Translations under genes and position numbers: made by a program | Assembly: GCA_016205145.1 (NCBI GenBank) | Contig: JACQJH010000001.1 | Coordinates: 580,964-612,963 of the forward strand | Length of the DNA stretch: 32,000 nt | DNA from: Candidatus Iainarchaeum sp. | Lineage (GTDB): Archaea; Iainarchaeota; Iainarchaeia; Iainarchaeales; JACQJH01 | Reading direction: 5' to 3' | Shown: piece by piece, positions 17,665-32,000 of the stretch | Layout: every line of letters begins with the position of its first letter | Position numbering within the stretch: position 1 is the first letter of the stretch | The notes under the pieces: generated by a model | What the model was told of the DNA's origin: nothing | What the model saw: only the letters and a program-made list of their open reading frames with translations | Databases searched by the model: none

Positions 17665-17950
17665 TAAGGGCAGCGGGTGGTAAGCCGCCTTCTGTTCTGA
17701 ACTGGCATCCGTCTAAGCGTGCGACAAAGGCACTTGCACTGCAGCCTTTTCCGGCCGTTTCATCCTCGCGAAAAGAAGCTCAATTTTTTATCATCGTGCC
17801 TTTCCGCGGGTTCGTTTCTGTTCCGGAAAACCGGGAAACCCTTTCGGGTTCCCTTGGCTTAAGCAGTGGGCGGACTTTCCTCAGCCGAAAACCATTGAAG
17901 GTTTTTGCCGCATTGAAGCGGCTTGGCCGTGAGCCAGCCTCCCGCTACCC
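17665..17950 (-). ncRNA. rnpB: RNase P RNA (archaeal)
   Basis: The minus strand reads GGGTAGCGGGAGGCTGG...GGCTGAGGAAAGTCCGCCCAC (CR-I) ...GGATGAAACGGCC...CAGAACAGAAGGCGGCTTACCACCCGCTGCCC. The P1 helix (GGGTAGCGGG with CCCGCTGCCC) and the P4 helix (AAGTCCGCC with GGCGGCTT) can both form. A TATA box is centred about 27 nt upstream of the 5' G. Confidence 0.85.
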
Positions 17951-25987: not shown

Positions 25988-27475
<1,488 letters not shown>

Positions 27476-27517
27476 GGGTTTGAAACTTCAATAGAATTGG
27501 TTTGCTTGCATTTTTGG

Positions 27518-27545
27518 CTTGCTGAGCCAAATTGCCTATTTCCCG
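27518..27545 (-). other. 5' arm of the 16S processing stem (bulge-helix-bulge)
   Basis: See 25891-25918. Confidence 0.8.
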
Positions 27546-27844
27546 AGCCTTCCACTCAAACACAAACACGGTTTTTGCAAACCATGAAAGCATCTGGCAG
27601 GCATCATACCCAAAACAACTTGGGTACTCATGGAGACACGCAGCGCATTGCTTTTGCAATGCGCTTATCGCACCGTCCCGCCGAAACGGGACAGGCGTGC
27701 CTTTTGTGAGTTTAAACCAAGAGCGCCAAAAGGCACTCTTGGAATAAAAATCCCTAATTGCCATGCGTCAAATCGGACGTCATTGCATGGCAACAACAAA
27801 AACCGTACCGGTTTTTTTGCCCTATATACATGCACCACCCGCTC

Positions 27845-27910
27845 TTTAAAAACCTATCGGGCGGGCCGGGCTTGTTTAAAAAGTTCCAAGCGCGGGCTTT
27901 TGTTAAAAAA
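27845..27910 (-). promoter_or_regulatory. three TTTAAAAA-type boxes about 30 bp apart (27845-52, 27875-82, 27903-10): candidate tandem rRNA promoters
   Basis: Read on the minus strand, they match the TTTTTAAA boxes seen upstream of leuS, dinB and RNase P RNA. They lie 370-435 nt upstream of the 16S 5' end. Orientation is ambiguous because the box is nearly palindromic. Confidence 0.35.
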
Positions 27911-27953
27911 GCCCATAAATTGCTTTTTATGTTTTTCCGCCATAAATTTTCAA

Positions 27954-28427
27954 ATGACTAATGCGGATAAAGGGTATAATTTAGTCAAAAAACTCGATAA
28001 TGGAAAAATTGCTTGTTATCAATTTGAATTTGAAGGAAAACCTATTGCGGCATATATAGGGGTTACAGTTGCAAGTGAAAACAAAATTGGTGGAGGCGGG
28101 AAAGTGGGCGCAAATCCTCTTGACCCTTCAATAAGTGCCCAAGCTATGAAAGAAAACAAAACAGAATACCAATGGGAAAAATATACGACTTCTGCATTTG
28201 CGGCAACCCACCCAGAAATCAGAAGTAAGGAAGTAAGATTGGAATTAGATAGGAAAGTTACTCAGATTTCAGGAGTTGCTGTAATGAATGCTCCGATTCA
28301 AGAACTCCCGCCTAACCAAGCTATAATTACGCCTTCGGGGGCGCTTTTGTCTACTTCTACAGGAACACTTCAAGCCAATACTGATTTTACCCTTGATAAA
28401 CTAAAAAAACATTTTACTAAATATTGA
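27954..28427 (+). CDS. hypothetical protein (157 aa)
   Basis: ATG 27954 is the first start inside the AT-rich DNA. The upstream 108 codons of the track ORF run through the G+C-rich rRNA leader and look non-coding. No family recognised. Confidence 0.6.
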   Translation: MTNADKGYNLVKKLDNGKIACYQFEFEGKPIAAYIGVTVASENKIGGGGKVGANPLDPSISAQAMKENKTEYQWEKYTTSAFAATHPEIRSKEVRLELDRKVTQISGVAVMNAPIQELPPNQAIITPSGALLSTSTGTLQANTDFTLDKLKKHFTKY

Positions 28428-28446
28428 AACCATTTCTAAGCCCGCA

Positions 28447-28514
28447 TGCAGGAGACTGCAGGAGGAAGTCTTTTAAAGAGAAACACACACCTATAGTGCA
28501 GGAGAGTGCAGGAG
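28447..28514 (+). promoter_or_regulatory. four direct copies of TGCAGGAG in two pairs flanking a TATA-like box TTTTAAAG (28471-28478)
   Basis: Copies at 28447-54, 28457-64, 28497-504 and 28507-14. Spacing is 10 bp within each pair and 50 bp between pairs. The last copy also supplies an AGGAG ribosome-binding site 4 nt before ATG 28518. Confidence 0.7.
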
Positions 28515-28517
28515 ACA

Positions 28518-29429
28518 ATGTACCCAACTATACCTACTTTAGCCACATTACCAGAAGGCCTTAAACAAGCAGTGGCAGAAAATGACTTGCCATTAGAGGT
28601 AGCACTCCAATTAACCAAATTGAATAACCCGTTTGTAAACGAGAAAATGGTTCAAGTGATAAAAAGAAAAAAGAAATATGAAAGAGACCTTTTGAAAAAT
28701 GCTTTAGCTGCCGTTAAAAAAAGTAGCCAAATGAAAACCAAAATAAATGGATTAAAAAAAATAGTTGATTCAGGAATAACTCTCTCTTCGGTTTGGGATT
28801 TTGGTAACAGAGATAACTATGCAGGCGATGCAAATTTTTATGGAAATGCTCCAACCCAAGTCGTTGAACAGTGTATTCTGAGGCTTACTAAAGAAACTGA
28901 TTTCGTTGTAGACCCTATGGCTGGTTCTGGGACAACAATCGATGTATGTAAGGCATACAACCGAAAAGTCAAAGCGTTTGATTTAACTCCGACCAGAAAA
29001 GAAGTAGTCCAAAATGATAGTAGAAATATCCCTTTGAGAGATTTTTCTACAGATTTAGTTTTTCTTCATCCGCCTTATTGGGATATGGTGAAATACTCTA
29101 TAAAACAAAATGACATATCACGACTTCCTCTAAATAACTTTTTGGATAGTATGACCCAAATCATAAATGAATCTCAAAGAATTTTGAAAAAAGATAAATA
29201 TCTATGTATCTTGATAGGAGATATAGTAAGAAAAGGAAAATTTATTTCACTATCAAGAAAGTTATCAAACATTTGTGAGAACGCAGGATTAGAAGATGCT
29301 GGATACGCAATTAAGATTACAAAAGATTCTACCAGCCAAAGAAGAAGAGGAAAAGCTATATACGCAGAACTTGCGGCAACAAAAAATTTGAAGCAAAATC
29401 ACGATATAATTATGTTTTGGAAAAAATGA
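28518..29429 (+). CDS. SAM-dependent PPY-type amino-methyltransferase (probable DNA N6-A/N4-C methylase) with a ParB-HTH-like N-terminal segment
   Basis: Motif I FVVDPMAGSGTT lies about 52 aa before motif IV LVFLHPPYW, with acidic motif II/III residues between (KAFDL, QNDSRNIPL). The N-terminal LPEGLKQAVAENDLPLEVALQLTKL resembles the helix pair after the ParB HTH. The track start is GTG 28506; ATG 28518 is preferred. Confidence 0.8.
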   Translation: MYPTIPTLATLPEGLKQAVAENDLPLEVALQLTKLNNPFVNEKMVQVIKRKKKYERDLLKNALAAVKKSSQMKTKINGLKKIVDSGITLSSVWDFGNRDNYAGDANFYGNAPTQVVEQCILRLTKETDFVVDPMAGSGTTIDVCKAYNRKVKAFDLTPTRKEVVQNDSRNIPLRDFSTDLVFLHPPYWDMVKYSIKQNDISRLPLNNFLDSMTQIINESQRILKKDKYLCILIGDIVRKGKFISLSRKLSNICENAGLEDAGYAIKITKDSTSQRRRGKAIYAELAATKNLKQNHDIIMFWKK

Positions 29430-30143
29430 TTATTCTTTTGATATTTTTACCAATTCATTTTTTTGTTGTTCGGTTTTACTTTTTTCATATTCTTTTTTTC
29501 CATTCACAAATTCTTGAACTGCATTGTCAGGCAACGGGTGTACCCCTTTCCCATCAATTCGTGCCATTTTTATTTTTCCGCCTACGTCACCATCAATACT
29601 AATTGTTTCAACCATTGTTTTAGCAACTAAAAAACACATTTCATCTACTCCATAATTTTTATCATATTCTTTTGACAGGATATAACGTGCAATGAAGGGT
29701 TTGCCTTCAGCAACTGTATTATCCCCTCTTCCCGAGAAAAACAAATTTTCACTTCTTAAAACATAAATTTTTGGCATAACTTTAGTTTTTATTTTATCTA
29801 ACCCTGCGATAATTATTGTAACGCTTGGAAAACTTTTACTTCGTGGGTTTATAGTATCTGATATATGGGAAATTTCTTTTTTACAAAATCTTTTAAATTC
29901 AGAAACAACATCAGTTACATACCATTTTTTTGTTTTTGAATATTTATATTTAAAATCTTCTATTAACTGCATGGCTATCTCAGGGTCACCTGCAACTAGC
30001 GCACAAGAATAATCAGTCAATTGAATCATTTTTTGCGCAACTAAAGATTCCATTCTCGAACCGTCGTTATCTACCCACGTTCCTTTACTATCCGCAGCGA
30101 GAACTAAATAATCTTTTCCAGATACCGCAATAACAAGTGTCAT
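29430..30143 (-). CDS. stand-alone proteasome-beta/HslV-like Ntn peptidase
   Basis: Begins MTLVIAVSGKDYLVLAADSKGT. This places Thr directly after Met (Thr1) and Asp at mature position 17, with a QKMIQL lysine matching the Lys33 region. Overall length and block order resemble archaeal proteasome beta (my recollection of the Thermoplasma sequence). It has a K/E-rich C-terminal tail. Confidence 0.7.
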   Translation of the reverse strand: MTLVIAVSGKDYLVLAADSKGTWVDNDGSRMESLVAQKMIQLTDYSCALVAGDPEIAMQLIEDFKYKYSKTKKWYVTDVVSEFKRFCKKEISHISDTINPRSKSFPSVTIIIAGLDKIKTKVMPKIYVLRSENLFFSGRGDNTVAEGKPFIARYILSKEYDKNYGVDEMCFLVAKTMVETISIDGDVGGKIKMARIDGKGVHPLPDNAVQEFVNGKKEYEKSKTEQQKNELVKISKE

Positions 30144-30147
30144 ACTT

Positions 30148-30711
30148 TCACGTTTCCTTATTTACTCTTTGTGTCACAAGACTTGTTACAATTTGATTAA
30201 TAGTTTTATTTTGCTTTTTTGCTATTTTTTTTAATTTTTCAAATTGCTCATTTTCTAAGGAAACAACAACTAAGTTTAATGTGGCTTTTAGCTCCTTTGA
30301 CTTTTTTAATCGATTAATTTGATTTTCTATTGAGACCCCGCGATTATTTTTTGCAAACCTTATCATATCCCTTGCATCGTGTGCACTAAGCCCAACTATT
30401 GAGTTAGCAATTCTTATTTGGTCTTCTTTGTTTTTGATTGCTAACAGCCTCCAACCCAAGTCTTGAGTAATTTTATTTTCTTTTATTAATTGCTTTATCT
30501 CTGATGGCAAATCTAAAAGTTTTATAGTAGAACGAACCATTTCTCTGGACAATGAAAGCAACTTTGCAACTTTTCCATCAGACTTATATTTATCTTTAAG
30601 CTCCTTGAATTTTTCGGCTAAAAATATCCAGTCGTGGGTTTGTTTTCCTTTTGCCTTAAAATTAGAATATATGATGGCAAATATTTCATCTTCATCAACT
30701 TTTTTAGTCAT
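30148..30711 (-). CDS. ParB-HTH-only protein with a C-terminal ribbon-helix-helix-like segment
   Basis: KVAKLLSLSREMVRSTIKLLDLPSEIKQLIKENKITQDLGWRLLAI is a ParB HTH-domain pattern, and no ParB/Srx N-domain is present. The C-terminus LNLVVVSLENEQFEKLKKIAKKQNKTINQIVTSLV fits a beta-alpha-alpha (RHH) pattern. There is an ATGA overlap with the upstream gene. Confidence 0.7.
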   Translation of the reverse strand: MTKKVDEDEIFAIIYSNFKAKGKQTHDWIFLAEKFKELKDKYKSDGKVAKLLSLSREMVRSTIKLLDLPSEIKQLIKENKITQDLGWRLLAIKNKEDQIRIANSIVGLSAHDARDMIRFAKNNRGVSIENQINRLKKSKELKATLNLVVVSLENEQFEKLKKIAKKQNKTINQIVTSLVTQRVNKET

Positions 30712-31541
30712 TCTTCTTGTCCCCTAACGTAACCCTTGATTATTTCGGTGAGAAGGTCTTCTATGCCAATTTTATTTTTACTATTGTTTGCAATTCCTTG
30801 AATTTTATCGAAGTCAGACCTATCAACTAAAACAGTGAGTTTAATTTTTCTGGAAGGTTTTTTTGCCTCGGCTAATATTTCTTCAATAGATGCATCTTTA
30901 TTTTCCATACCCACATCTAGTATATTATCCCATTCTGGTTTTGTCATTCCTATCATATGTCTTGCAATTTTCACGATTTTTTCCGATTTTGGCCAAAAAG
31001 CAGTAGTTAATTTATAGGCTTGTTTCGGGTCAAGTTTTTTTTCAGCTACCATGTCTCTTACTTCTTTTGGTATGATTCGGTAAGAGAGATATTTAGTAAC
31101 TGTTTGAAGAGATAAACCAACATCCGCAGCTACTTGTTCTAATCTCTTTGATTGCGTCCCCGTATACTTACTAAATAATTCATCACATACTCTAATAGTG
31201 TCATTATACGGCAGTTTTGTTCTATTGACATTTTCAGAGAATGAAATAATTCTTTTTGTTAACTCATTAACATTATTGATTAATATTGCTGGAATTTCTT
31301 CTCGTTTTAATTCTTCGAATGCCCTAAATCTTCTTTGCCCTACAAGAACTTTGAATTTTTTATTTCCTTTTCCTTCGGTTAAAAGTATGGGGTGGATAAG
31401 TCCGACATTTTCTATACTCGCTTTTAGCACATCTAGATTATTTTTTCTACCTTCAGTTCTAACATTTAAAGTGTCAACTTCAATATCGTTAATGTTTGCT
31501 TCAAAATATTTTCTATCTTTTATATAGTCAAGTGTAGCCAT
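30708..31541 (-). CDS. ParB/Srx-domain protein with HTH and a C-terminal ribbon-helix-helix-like segment
   Basis: The ParB N-domain shows the arginine patch VLVGQRRFRAFEEL (GxRRxRA type) and IHPILL. The HTH is QVAADVGLSLQTVTKYLSYRIIPKEVRDMVAEKKL. The C-terminus is KLTVLVDRSDFDKIQGIANNSKNKIGIEDLLTEIIKGYV. ATG 31541 is preceded by AGGTGA. The track start at 31568 is less likely. Confidence 0.8.
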   Translation of the reverse strand: MATLDYIKDRKYFEANINDIEVDTLNVRTEGRKNNLDVLKASIENVGLIHPILLTEGKGNKKFKVLVGQRRFRAFEELKREEIPAILINNVNELTKRIISFSENVNRTKLPYNDTIRVCDELFSKYTGTQSKRLEQVAADVGLSLQTVTKYLSYRIIPKEVRDMVAEKKLDPKQAYKLTTAFWPKSEKIVKIARHMIGMTKPEWDNILDVGMENKDASIEEILAEAKKPSRKIKLTVLVDRSDFDKIQGIANNSKNKIGIEDLLTEIIKGYVRGQEE

Positions 31542-31549
31542 ATAGTCAC

Positions 31550-31846
31550 CTAGTGGGTGGCATTCCAATTATCTCGTAAATTTTTCCATTCTTCAATAGT
31601 TATTTCTTTTCTGCCTAATTTACTATTTATCTCAGAAATAAAATCGCCATAGTCTTTAACTTTTTTATCTTTTTGTTCAGCCTTTTCCACTTCCGAACTT
31701 AACTGTTCAATATCTTTGATGTCGTGATTTATCGAAAAGTGTTTCAGGATATCCTTAAATTCGCATTTACAAATTGGGCAAAAATTATTTGTCAATCTAC
31801 CACCTTGTTTTTTGTCTTTTTGAAACCCCTTTGACTTAAAGCCCAC
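31550..31846 (-). CDS. small C2H2-type zinc-finger protein
   Basis: CPICKCEFKDILKHFSINH gives the pattern C-x2-C-x9-H-x4-H. The maximal ORF starts at GTG 31846. The more likely start is TTG 31795, which overlaps the TGA stop of the upstream 50-aa ORF (TTGA) and follows AAGGTGG. Confidence 0.6.
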   Translation of the reverse strand: MGFKSKGFQKDKKQGGRLTNNFCPICKCEFKDILKHFSINHDIKDIEQLSSEVEKAEQKDKKVKDYGDFISEINSKLGRKEITIEEWKNLRDNWNATH

Positions 31847-31944
31847 TTAAAAAGCTTGGTTGGGCTTATTTGATTATTTTCAAGAAACTTCTTTTCATCG
31901 TTAGTTAAGGAAACGGAAACCCATTTAATTCCAGAATTAGCCAT
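31792..31944 (-). CDS. 50-aa ribbon-helix-helix-like protein (below the ORF-track size cut-off)
   Basis: Hand translation gives MANSGIKWVSVSLTNDEKKFLENNQISPTKLFKWALSQRGFKKTKNKVVD. The beta strand (KWVSVSL) followed by two helices fits an RHH pattern. It is the first gene of the operon and sits downstream of an AT-rich, TATA-rich region (31945-32000). Confidence 0.5.
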   Translation of the reverse strand: MANSGIKWVSVSLTNDEKKFLENNQISPTKLFKWALSQRGFKKTKNKVVD

Positions 31945-32000
31945 ATATGCCAAATTATATAAGTTATACAATAACTTTAAAAGCTTATTATATTATATAA

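Follow-up and report, generated by a model that had tools for sequence, protein, structure and literature searches.

An archaeal mobile cassette that joins ParB-family proteins and a proteasome-like peptidase to a DNA-modification enzyme

At the end of a 32,000-nucleotide stretch of the genome of Candidatus Iainarchaeum sp. (the window) lies a conserved unit in which genes for a zinc-finger protein (ZnF), a ParB protein, a ParB paralogue (ParB') and a Thr1 peptidase follow one another in that order, together with one DNA-modification enzyme. This cassette is a single self-contained, horizontally mobile unit of about 4 kb. Judged from its sequences, it would most likely act as a modification-coupled self/non-self or addiction module, a reading to which we assign a probability of roughly 45%. 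The original prediction, that these genes form a candidate undescribed system and are not a chance juxtaposition, is supported. It had named four outcomes that would speak against it, namely failure of the family assignments, absence of the gene set elsewhere, a conventional parA just beyond the window, and an assembly artefact; all four were tested and none was observed. No described system of such composition was found in PADLOC or the literature, and within the cassette PADLOC recognised the methyltransferase (MTase) alone, with no known defence model.

The host is an archaeal genome of 1.25 Mb and 51% GC from a groundwater metagenome, in which the cassette forms a 31%-GC island. The left boundary of the island is at 27950..27953, where GC drops from about 51% to 31-39%; the island is situated directly upstream of the 16S rRNA gene, which runs on the minus strand (25989-27474). 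Three Logan contigs bridge this boundary: X1 (27205-29854) and X2 (27205-29157), each with 0 mismatches, and X3 (27143-28118). The crossing without mismatches is seen in independently built contigs of two runs, and a strain variant of a third sample spans the junction too. The host-island junction is therefore not chimeric, as the assembly-artefact concern would have had it. The right end of the window is the end of contig C1, while contig C2 opens with a DDE transposase gene whose homologues adjoin the cassette in loci L004 and L006; the C1 end and the C2 start, when joined, give a promoter repeat as in L006. Since C1 ends there and C2 supplies the transposase and the missing part of that repeat, no parA is concealed past the window, in keeping with the absence of ParA noted originally. 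No ParA-type genes occur near the cassette in the host genome, the nearest being more than 100 kb away.

When read directly, the minus-strand junctions are those first described. The TTG start of the ZnF gene at 31795 overlaps the TGA of the upstream RHH50 gene as TTGA; the ZnF stop (TAG, 31552-31550) is followed by an 8-nt gap and the ParB ATG at 31541, with AGGTGA spanning the stop; the ParB stop and ParB' start share ATGA (30711/30708); and 4 nt separate ParB' from the peptidase ATG at 30143. The stop codons of the MTase (29429) and the peptidase (29430) abut directly in a convergent arrangement.

The family assignments proposed for ParB, ParB', the peptidase and the MTase hold in profile and structure searches. 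ParB (277 aa; 30708..31541, minus strand) possesses a ParB/Srx N-domain, an HTH and an RHH-like C-terminus, and matches ParB_N (1e-12), HTH_ParB and TIGR00180 (72 bits, cut-off 58). Its N-domain has intact CTP-type motifs and aligns to the Noc and ParB CTPases; the protein resembles the Noc, Spo0J and KorB CTPase clamps most closely. Residues G68-Q-R-R71 and E103-N104..R107 are unchanged across 12 homologues, and with GQRR and ENxxR invariant the protein looks active; it is the sole ParB_N gene product of the host genome. ParB' (30148..30711, minus strand) matches HTH_ParB (2e-11) and RHH_4 (2e-4); its DNA-binding domain is of the ParB type and its C-terminus RHH-like. It corresponds to residues 104-275 of ParB, of which it is a paralogue (hhalign 98.8%). 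Its AF2 model (pLDDT 87) ends in a beta-alpha-alpha C-terminus and matches the DNA-binding domains of Noc, ParB and KorB. ParB' thus comprises the DNA-binding and C-terminal region of ParB minus the nucleotide-binding domain.

The stand-alone proteasome-beta-like Thr1 peptidase (237 aa; 29430..30143, minus strand) matches PF00227 at 40.6 bits (cut-off 22.4). It is a divergent third copy in the host, which also has its own proteasome alpha and beta genes, and its identity between cassettes falls to about 30%. M1-T2, D18, K38, S131 and a D-x-D-V-G-G motif are unchanged across 20 homologues, and with Thr1, Asp and Lys invariant the enzyme looks active. The top solved matches to its AF2 model (pLDDT 88) are 20S beta subunits (TM 0.80-0.84). 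It shares the 20S beta fold and the conserved Asp and Lys with HslV, Anbu, BPH and archaeal 20S beta subunits, and as in HslV Thr1 is exposed without a propeptide; however, its identity to solved beta subunits is only 17-19%, and it has an additional C-terminal helix (residues 206-236). Proteasome-type peptidases normally require an unfoldase, but the cassette encodes none, which counts against the self/non-self reading; neither an alpha subunit nor an unfoldase of the HslU or PAN type is found in its operon. To our knowledge no other stand-alone proteasome homologue is fixed in a ParB/DNA-modification operon, and our literature searches returned none.

The 81-aa zinc-finger protein (31550..31795, minus strand) is a conserved core member, and its gene precedes that of ParB in almost every locus. 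The finger originally called C2H2 has the arrangement C-x2-C-x9-H-x4-H, with C6, C9, H19 and H24 invariant in 10 homologues, although its matches to Pfam C2H2 are sub-threshold; the helical tail carries an invariant Trp (W77). The 50-aa RHH50 (31792..31944, minus strand), predicted to be a ribbon-helix-helix protein, has language-model features that point to CopG/RHH_1 clusters (0.90), a lead only, and no match in the HMM search. It occupies this position only in the window and in L006, there as an uncalled ORF 77% identical, and is an optional putative regulator, not part of the core. On the plus strand, the MTase of the predicted pair belongs to the cassette. The 157-aa ORF (27954..28427) is an ORFan within the island, as first described, with no Pfam, PHROG, PADLOC or NCBIfam match and only itself among 5.8 billion proteins; it was rejected as a cassette member, its homologue being absent from every other cassette.

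The MTase (28518..29429, plus strand), whose start we correct to the ATG at 28518, is a 303-aa amino-methyltransferase occupying a variable modification slot. It matches PF01555 (8e-20) and PADLOC MTase_II (5e-25), and its motif order, I (DPMAGSGTT) followed by IV (HPPYW), is a permutation of that in the beta-class enzyme 2zie. The helical N-terminal extension of about 90 aa was originally called ParB-HTH-like; hhalign (72%) hints at a relationship, the match being to the helices after the HTH. Convergent MTases also occur in L003, L004, L006, L009 and L015, and the window enzyme is 55-77% identical to them. Within this clade the MTase has had a history separate from that of the core: between the window and L004 its identity is 77% as against 51-54% for the core genes. 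Both ParB277 and the MTase match the fused ParB-MTase family phrog_498. In a sister clade the MTase is replaced by an SspD-like PAPS reductase (PADLOC SspD 108-110 bits, BrxP 39-43, DndC 19), and the core-gene tree divides cleanly in two, one clade with the MTase, which includes the window, and one with the PAPS reductase. The core always adjoins one DNA-modification gene, an MTase or an SspD-like PAPS reductase according to clade.

Around the cassette promoters lie operator arrays and small, modular regulators. The MTase promoter/operator (28447..28514, plus strand) ends 3 nt before the ATG and contains the four TGCAGGAG repeats that were predicted to bracket it, at 28447, 28457, 28497 and 28507, with a TATA-like TTTTAAAG box between the two pairs (28471-28478). 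No other cluster of at least three TGCAGGAG copies exists in the 1.25-Mb genome. The same operator-flanked layout is found in L004, L006 and L015, the form thus being conserved in four loci, and in four other loci an RHH-like ORF is co-transcribed with the MTase. The operon promoter (31955..32000, minus strand) comprises TTGTATAA-CTTATATAA (31971-31955) and a TATA-like TTTTAAAG (31982-31975), with a distal inverted arm that begins at 32000-31992 and runs on into contig C2. In L006 the order is TTATACAA-NTTATATAA, TATA box, TTGTATAA-NTTRTATAA and ATG, which C1 plus C2 reproduces.

The genes co-occur elsewhere, as anticipated. Both peptidase-seeded and ParB-seeded searches recovered the core, which recurs in the same gene order in more than 30 further loci, the named hosts being Micrarchaeota, Aenigmatarchaeota, Bathyarchaeota and Nitrosotalea; in all, the cassette is known from at least five archaeal phyla. 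The peptidase-seeded search gave 15 loci, all with ParB_N, HTH_ParB and peptidase in succession (15/15), and the ParB-seeded scan gave 26 additional loci in which ZnF-ParB-ParB'-peptidase was present without exception where the contig was long enough to tell. Distribution is sporadic. One of 41 same-order genomes has the cassette, the host itself, and two of 215 same-phylum genomes match at E<=1e-30, the host and a relative at 137 bits in which no ParB was detected beside the match. The cassette is a discrete low-GC island in hosts of differing composition, and many copies are flanked by transposases, integrases or an Orc1/Cdc6 gene. Four copies adjoin Type II or IIG R-M or HEPN genes.

As a modification-coupled module the cassette might work as follows. 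The modification enzyme would mark resident DNA, with ParB helping or targeting it in the manner of the ParB-superfamily partners of phage T-dioxygenases, DpdA, DndC and IbrA. Site recognition on the DNA would fall to the ParB-type HTH that ParB and ParB' have in common; ParB would be able to close into a nucleotide-gated clamp, unlike ParB', which would thus serve as a competitor or adaptor. On unmarked DNA, either an invader or the host chromosome once the cassette has been lost, a ParB/ParB'/ZnF assembly would engage the dedicated peptidase, proteolysis being the effector step. Operators would order expression: the TGCAGGAG copies bracket the TATA box and transcription start of the MTase, RHH50 would most likely act at the TTGTATAA inverted repeats in a promoter region divergently shared with the transposase gene, and the stop-to-stop layout would couple the two transcription units. 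There are precedents in which a DNA-modifying enzyme has a ParB protein as its obligate partner (PMC13229309, PMC12839542, PMC10853773), the dependence on ParB of a DNA modifier acting on dsDNA having been shown experimentally (PMC13229309), and in BREX types an MTase and a PAPS reductase are alternative modifiers (PMC12839542).

Among known systems, the ParB partner pairs (phage 5mYOX-ParB, DpdA-DpdB, DndC-DndB, IbrA-IbrB and ParB-MTase fusions) resemble the cassette in that a ParB-family gene adjoins an MTase or PAPS-reductase-type modifier. The cassette ParB differs in being a full Noc/Spo0J-like protein with HTH and CTP-type motifs, not a DndB, DUF262 or IbrB-type protein, and the N-domain-less paralogue, zinc finger and proteasome-like peptidase, always present in the cassette, are reported for none of these pairs. 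Because the known pairs work without this triad, we infer that it adds a second function. BREX likewise alternates MTase (type 1, PglX) and PAPS reductase (type 4, BrxP) between sister variants, has a protease-family component (Lon-like BrxL) and is sporadic and island-like; the cassette, however, lacks PglZ, BrxC, BrxA and BrxB, its protease-family protein belongs with the 20S-beta-like Ntn hydrolases and is not Lon-like, and the cassette is much smaller (5-6 genes, about 4 kb) and seen in archaea only. With type II R-M systems under operator or C-protein control it shares a modification gene converging on the other arm, operator repeats around the MTase promoter, small RHH/HTH regulators and a low-GC mobile island sometimes next to R-M genes, but no restriction endonuclease or other nuclease domain was detected.

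Several observations count against the self/non-self role. The cassette contains neither a nuclease or helicase nor a motor ATPase or any known toxin domain, and we know of no case in which an SspD-like enzyme alone suffices for phosphorothioation. The three longest metagenomic loci are flanked by integrated-element genes, not defence genes, and the L003 and L019 copies sit among housekeeping genes without defence neighbours.

A possible but less probable alternative is that the cassette only modifies DNA, by ParB-assisted methylation or phosphorothioate-type modification with no restriction or killing arm, perhaps shielding a mobile element or the host from restriction or setting an epigenetic state. 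The sole task of ZnF, ParB' and the peptidase would then be to control modification, the peptidase for instance turning over ParB' or RHH regulators much as the ImmA protease acts on the ImmR repressor in mobile elements. This is consistent with the lack of a nuclease or toxin, with ParB-modifier pairs and ParB-MTase fusions being common in phages and plasmids (the fused family phrog_498 is matched by both ParB277 and the MTase), with the presence of IbrA and IbrB in phages, with the many copies in integrated-element contexts (integrase or Orc1/Cdc6), and with the several RHH-type DNA-binding proteins that are plausible protease substrates. Yet three extra genes kept without exception over deep divergence (peptidase about 30%) are much for regulation, and many known ParB-modifier pairs do without them. 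Lone 4-kb islands, as in L003 and the window, hold nothing else to regulate, and it is the clear regulators (RHH50, s57, the RHH upstream of the MTase) that vary while the peptidase is invariant.

We consider it improbable that the cassette serves a mobile element for partition, silencing or maintenance without a ParA, ParB and ParB' acting like KorB and KorA or a type Ib ParG system and the peptidase and MTase being accessories. With ParABS, KorB-KorA and Noc proteins the ParB has in common GxRR and ENxxR motifs, an HTH of ParB type and a C-terminus that dimerises, and it is closest to the CTPase clamps; the smaller DNA-binding partner ParB' recalls KorA; the RHH-like C-termini have counterparts in type Ib centromere-binding proteins; and transposases, integrases and Orc1/Cdc6 lie nearby, with a ParA-like gene 2 kb from the cassette in L004. 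However, ParA, ParM and TubZ are absent from the cassette at all loci, the nearest ParA-like genes of the host are distant, and a shared palindromic parS-like site or centromere array was sought and none found. The copies are chromosomal: one belongs to a contig of 1.38 Mb, and some have housekeeping genes on either side. The link to a modifier and to the peptidase is obligatory, and partition leaves the modification enzyme unexplained. That there is no system, only an assembly chimera or unrelated passenger genes, is scarcely credible: the island does occupy the extreme end of a MAG contig, next to an rRNA operon, and GC shifts there by 20 points, but the bridging contigs and the same order in more than 30 loci of several phyla argue against it.

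The modification-coupled self/non-self or addiction module thus stays the preferred reading. Among the three roles first suggested (a ParB clamp recruiting a peptidase, proteolytic control of RHH repressors, and a methylation-dependent self/non-self module), a modification-dependent self/non-self role fits the new evidence best, and the exchange of the MTase for a PAPS reductase is the strongest clue to what the cassette does.

The four junctions between the cassette genes are as first described, namely a TTGA overlap, an 8-nt gap with AGGTGA lying across the stop codon, an ATGA overlap and a 4-nt gap, and the stop codons of the peptidase and of the convergent methyltransferase directly abut (29430/29429). 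In Pfam and NCBIfam the calls of the original prediction stand for the methyltransferase, the proteasome-like peptidase, ParB (ParB_N and HTH_ParB) and the ParB paralogue, ParB' (ParB-HTH and RHH). Judged from its sequence, ParB contains an N-terminal ParB/Srx domain with predicted CTP-binding and hydrolysis motifs, and an HTH domain. Aligned with the CTP-dependent Noc and ParB proteins it matches at GQRRFRA and ENVNR, and its nucleotide motifs are invariant within the family. ParB' is paralogous to residues 104-275 of ParB (hhalign 98.8%); its model matches the DNA-binding domains of Noc, ParB and KorB and has a C-terminal beta-alpha-alpha tail that is RHH-like. The zinc-finger protein (ZnF) has invariant metal ligands. 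The methyltransferase matches PF01555 (8e-20) and PADLOC MTase_II (5e-25) and possesses motifs I and IV; the ParB-like N-terminus ascribed to it is faintly suggested (hhalign 72%). For RHH50, the 50-aa ORF, language-model features point to a ribbon-helix-helix protein and are the sole basis of the call, but Pfam gave no match even at E 10. The same Pfam search gave none for the small ORFs on the methyltransferase side. PADLOC recognised the methyltransferase alone, and the peptidase, RHH50 and the 157-aa ORFan had no match in PHROGs.

The peptidase scores above the cut-off of PF00227, and its model (pLDDT 88) has 20S beta subunits as nearest folds (TM 0.80-0.84), that of Thermoplasma among them. 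Among its homologues a Met-Thr start (M1-T2) without propeptide, D18, K38 and a D-x-D-V-G-G motif are invariant. From sequence and model it is predicted to bear the marks of the proteasome beta/HslV family: an N-terminal Thr, equivalents of Asp17 and Lys33, and the alpha-beta-beta-alpha sandwich. An assignment to HslV rather than to 20S beta was rejected, since the fold search puts the 20S beta subunits first. At the loci compared the operon has no gene for an alpha subunit or for an HslU- or PAN-type unfoldase; the canonical proteasome alpha and beta genes of the host are separate and lie elsewhere in its genome. Close relatives of the peptidase number about 20 among 5.8 billion proteins, and with a profile 233 clusters were retrieved from 1.84 billion representatives at E<=1e-10.

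Every contig with a peptidase relative down to about 150 bits carries ParB_N, HTH_ParB and peptidase genes in this order on one strand. Contigs were scanned with the ParB alignment as seed, that of ParB' being too divergent for seeding, and this yielded 26 metagenomic loci, among which the order ZnF, ParB, ParB', peptidase has no exception where the contig is long enough. The original prediction had staked its case on the genes co-occurring outside this locus, and they do so whether the search starts from the peptidase or from ParB. Peptidase relatives at 128 bits or less have another context, one lying in a GHKL-ATPase/peptidase/trypsin operon and another alone. The former, P0084 (128 bits), is a more distant proteasome-like protein that lacks a propeptide; in its operon the peptidase is accompanied by an 84-aa ORF, a trypsin-like protease and a 496-aa GHKL-type ATPase (HATPase_c_3). 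This operon may represent a further conflict-type system built on the same family of peptidases.

The cassette stands out as a separate low-GC island, about 4 kb long, in hosts that differ in composition; those with a name are Micrarchaeota, Aenigmatarchaeota, Bathyarchaeota (three MAGs) and Nitrosotalea. It occurs in one of the 41 genomes searched from the same order (the host only). Among 215 genomes of the same phylum there is one match besides the host, of 137 bits and 27% identity (locus L053, G134:C20:19587-23252), beside which neither ParB nor ParB' was detected within 3.7 kb. At L053 a ZnF-like ORF is found just downstream of the peptidase on the opposite strand. Frequent neighbours of the cassette are transposases, tyrosine integrases and an Orc1/Cdc6 gene; some copies adjoin Type II or IIG restriction-modification (R-M) or HEPN genes, others plain housekeeping genes. 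A second, weak ParB_N-like ORF (264 aa, E 1.3e-4) was observed 4 kb downstream of a Bathyarchaeota cassette (L019:10771-11565). Viral contigs gave no match to the peptidase query, and the ParB query found two IMG/VR contigs with the full cassette of the PAPS reductase type, whose ten flanking ORFs include no viral hallmark gene.

At every locus with enough flank, the ParB-superfamily gene adjoins a gene for a DNA-modification enzyme. In the clade of the window this fifth gene encodes a convergent amino-methyltransferase with its stop 0-4 nt from that of the peptidase. In the sister clade it encodes a PAPS-reductase-family protein, either convergent or upstream in the operon, which scores best against SspD (108-110 bits) and also matches BrxP (weakly) and DndC. 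A tree of the concatenated core splits cleanly into these two types. Since a methyltransferase in one clade is replaced by a PAPS reductase in the other, the variable slot is predicted to hold a DNA-modification enzyme, and this is the strongest clue to function. Within the methyltransferase type, the window and locus L004 share 77% identity in the methyltransferase against 51-54% in the core, and the methyltransferase, its promoter and its regulator behave as an exchangeable unit.

The four repeats predicted at the methyltransferase promoter were borne out: TGCAGGAG copies lie on both sides of a TTTTAAAG box, and the cluster is the only one of its kind in the genome. The same layout (two octamers, TATA box, two octamers, start codon) is found in the window, L004, L006 and L015, and in L003, L009, L028 and L032 its place is taken by a small ORF that is RHH-like and precedes the methyltransferase. 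Genome-wide, TGCAGGAG has 59 copies versus about 38 expected, so that there is no avoidance signal suggesting a restriction target. RHH50 was found in the window and L006 only, both of which have TTGTATAA inverted repeats. As the sole binder of the TGCAGGAG operator RHH50 was rejected, for L015 has the operator and no room for the gene. At L004, RHH and ZnF give way to an unrelated ORF of 57 aa with four TTTCTATATAGAA repeats (L004:1102-1189, 1198-1371); the four copies are palindromic and precede the ORF, a homologue of which lies near a transposase in L015, and the two look like an alternative regulator-operator pair. Because promoter layouts, RHH ORFs and the L004 ORF vary between loci, we consider the regulators and operators modular and the four-gene core fixed.

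Several known systems share a component with the cassette. As in Type II R-M systems there is a predicted DNA methyltransferase, but the cognate restriction endonuclease is lacking, and no cassette protein matched a nuclease family in Pfam, PHROGs, PADLOC or NCBIfam. Unlike BREX, the cassette gene lists hold no PglZ, BrxC, BrxA or BrxB; apart from the BrxP match of the PAPS partner there was no PADLOC match to a Brx protein. Compared with Dnd/Ssp, the loci of the PAPS type have the SspD-like reductase only and not the full DndACDE or SspABCD set, and no desulfurase, nickase, ABC or DndD-type ATPase is among their listed neighbours. The adjacency of ParB and modifier is common to the cassette and the ParB-dependent modification pairs IbrAB, DndBC, DpdAB and 5mYOX-ParB. 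A phage ParB activates its T-dioxygenase on dsDNA (PMC13229309), DpdB partners DpdA and DndB partners Dnd genes (PMC12839542, PMC10853773), and IbrA and IbrB are found as a pair (PMC8813620, PMC4490671). These pairs function without ZnF, ParB' or peptidase, whereas the cassette has all three. We class it with the ParB-coupled DNA-modification modules. Its composition was put forward as previously undescribed, and this holds for PADLOC, which has no model, and for full-text literature searches, which found no description of the cassette, no paper joining ParB, PAPS reductase and proteasome, none linking proteasome-like proteins to anti-phage activity, and nothing relevant on ParB, proteasome and DPANN.

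From the sequences and from analogy with these pairs, our leading reading is a modification-based self/non-self or addiction module, to which we give a probability of roughly 0.45. Several features fit such logic: one slot takes different modification enzymes, the two arms meet at their stop codons in convergent orientation, operators control the modifier, and the distribution is sporadic and mobile. Since the known ParB-modifier pairs work without it, the strictly conserved triad of ZnF, ParB' and peptidase, with its intact predicted protease active site, most likely adds a second arm. With no nuclease or unfoldase present, how that arm works can only be inferred. A module that modifies only, and does so under proteolytic control, would have no such arm and is in our estimate somewhat unlikely.

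Little speaks for a partition module. The cassette resembles ParABS in having a ParB with the N-domain motifs and HTH, but at no locus compared does it contain the ParA, ParM or TubZ NTPase of partition systems. Its ParB is the only ParB_N gene of the host. A search for a parS-like site or array found promoter-proximal repeats only, and no parS-like palindrome is common to the cassettes of the methyltransferase type, which share only 11-mers in coding sequence. Nor does a conventional parA lie just past the window, as had been considered: contig C1 terminates at 32,000, the other contig, C2, opens at base 3 with a DDE_Tnp_1 transposase, and the ParA-type (AAA_31) genes of the host are more than 100 kb from the cassette. 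This transposase (G000:C2:1-1187; 395 aa, with an N-terminal CxxC...CxxC zinc ribbon) is homologous to those beside the cassette in L004, L006 and L015, with 39-42% identity to the divergent upstream transposases of L004 and L006. Joined, the end of C1 and the start of C2 rebuild the promoter layout of L006 (TTATACAA-NTTATATAA, TATA box, TTGTATAA-NTTRTATAA, ATG of the RHH gene), and we conclude that the contigs abut. The assembly break falls inside an inverted repeat of the promoter region that cassette and transposase gene share divergently. With the transposase counted, the island is about 5.3 kb long, and host-level GC is regained about 1 kb into C2.

An artefact, too, has little in its favour. 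C1, whose last 32 kb make up the window, belongs to an archaeal genome of two contigs (1.25 Mb, 51% GC) from a groundwater metagenome assembly; the genomes of its order-level relatives measure 0.5-1.5 Mb. At about 27,950 the GC content falls from 51% to 31% and stays low up to the contig end. Because this jump adjoins the 16S-tRNA-Ala-23S operon (22.1-27.5 kb, minus strand) at a contig end, a chimera test was run. Two runs gave Logan contigs that match the window over 27205-29854 and 27205-29157 with 0 mismatches, and a strain variant from a third sample spans 27143-28118; since all cross the junction between host and island, it is real and the island is not a product of assembly. Some contigs of the two runs match the window only from 28661 on, or only to 29948, and then continue into unlike sequence, and contig depth drops across the cassette from about 38 (27205-29854) to 14-23 (29973-32000). 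Both observations point to a second variant of the cassette or to strain heterogeneity within one community; the drop in depth could also stem from low-GC coverage bias. Within the window a 5S rRNA was not detected next to the rRNA operon; positions 17669-17949 on the minus strand contain the gene for an archaeal RNase P RNA (122 bits). The genome has four more low-GC islands (30-35% versus 51%), at C1:388000-392000, 510500-515000 and 564000-571000 and at C2:405000-410500. At the start of C1 (G000:C1:1-3200), a tRNA gene (anticodon CAT) is followed by slightly low-GC DNA encoding a PRC-barrel protein and a 332-aa tyrosine recombinase (Phage_integrase, 6.5e-45), which could be a chromosomal Xer-type recombinase or part of an element integrated at the tRNA gene.

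Within the self/non-self or addiction reading, a bolder proposal, which we hold to be unlikely, is a new archaeal class of immune or addiction system in which a ParB clamp reads the mark of its own cassette. A nucleotide-gated clamp, tuned by ParB' and by the zinc-finger adaptor, would sense whether DNA bears that mark, be it methylation or a phosphorothioate-type modification, and would then activate the dedicated self-compartmentalising Thr1 protease as effector. If true, such ParB-gated proteolysis would be the first functional link of ParB clamps to proteasome-type proteolysis and the first restriction arm to act by proteolysis and not by cutting DNA. Should the self/non-self or addiction reading hold, the cassette would join R-M, BREX, Dnd/Ssp and Dpd as an archaeal system of modification-based self/non-self recognition, in which a ParB clamp together with a proteasome homologue would take the place of a nuclease in the arm that does not modify. 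ParB proteins are emerging as partners of enzymes that modify DNA, a role that the cassette widens, and, unlike the orphans Anbu and BPH, a stand-alone proteasome-like peptidase gains a defined genetic context and testable partners. Being small (about 4 kb, 5-6 genes) and having two natural variants, the cassette is suited to heterologous reconstitution. Even if it were a regulated modification module only, its strictly conserved protease would represent a new regulatory principle.
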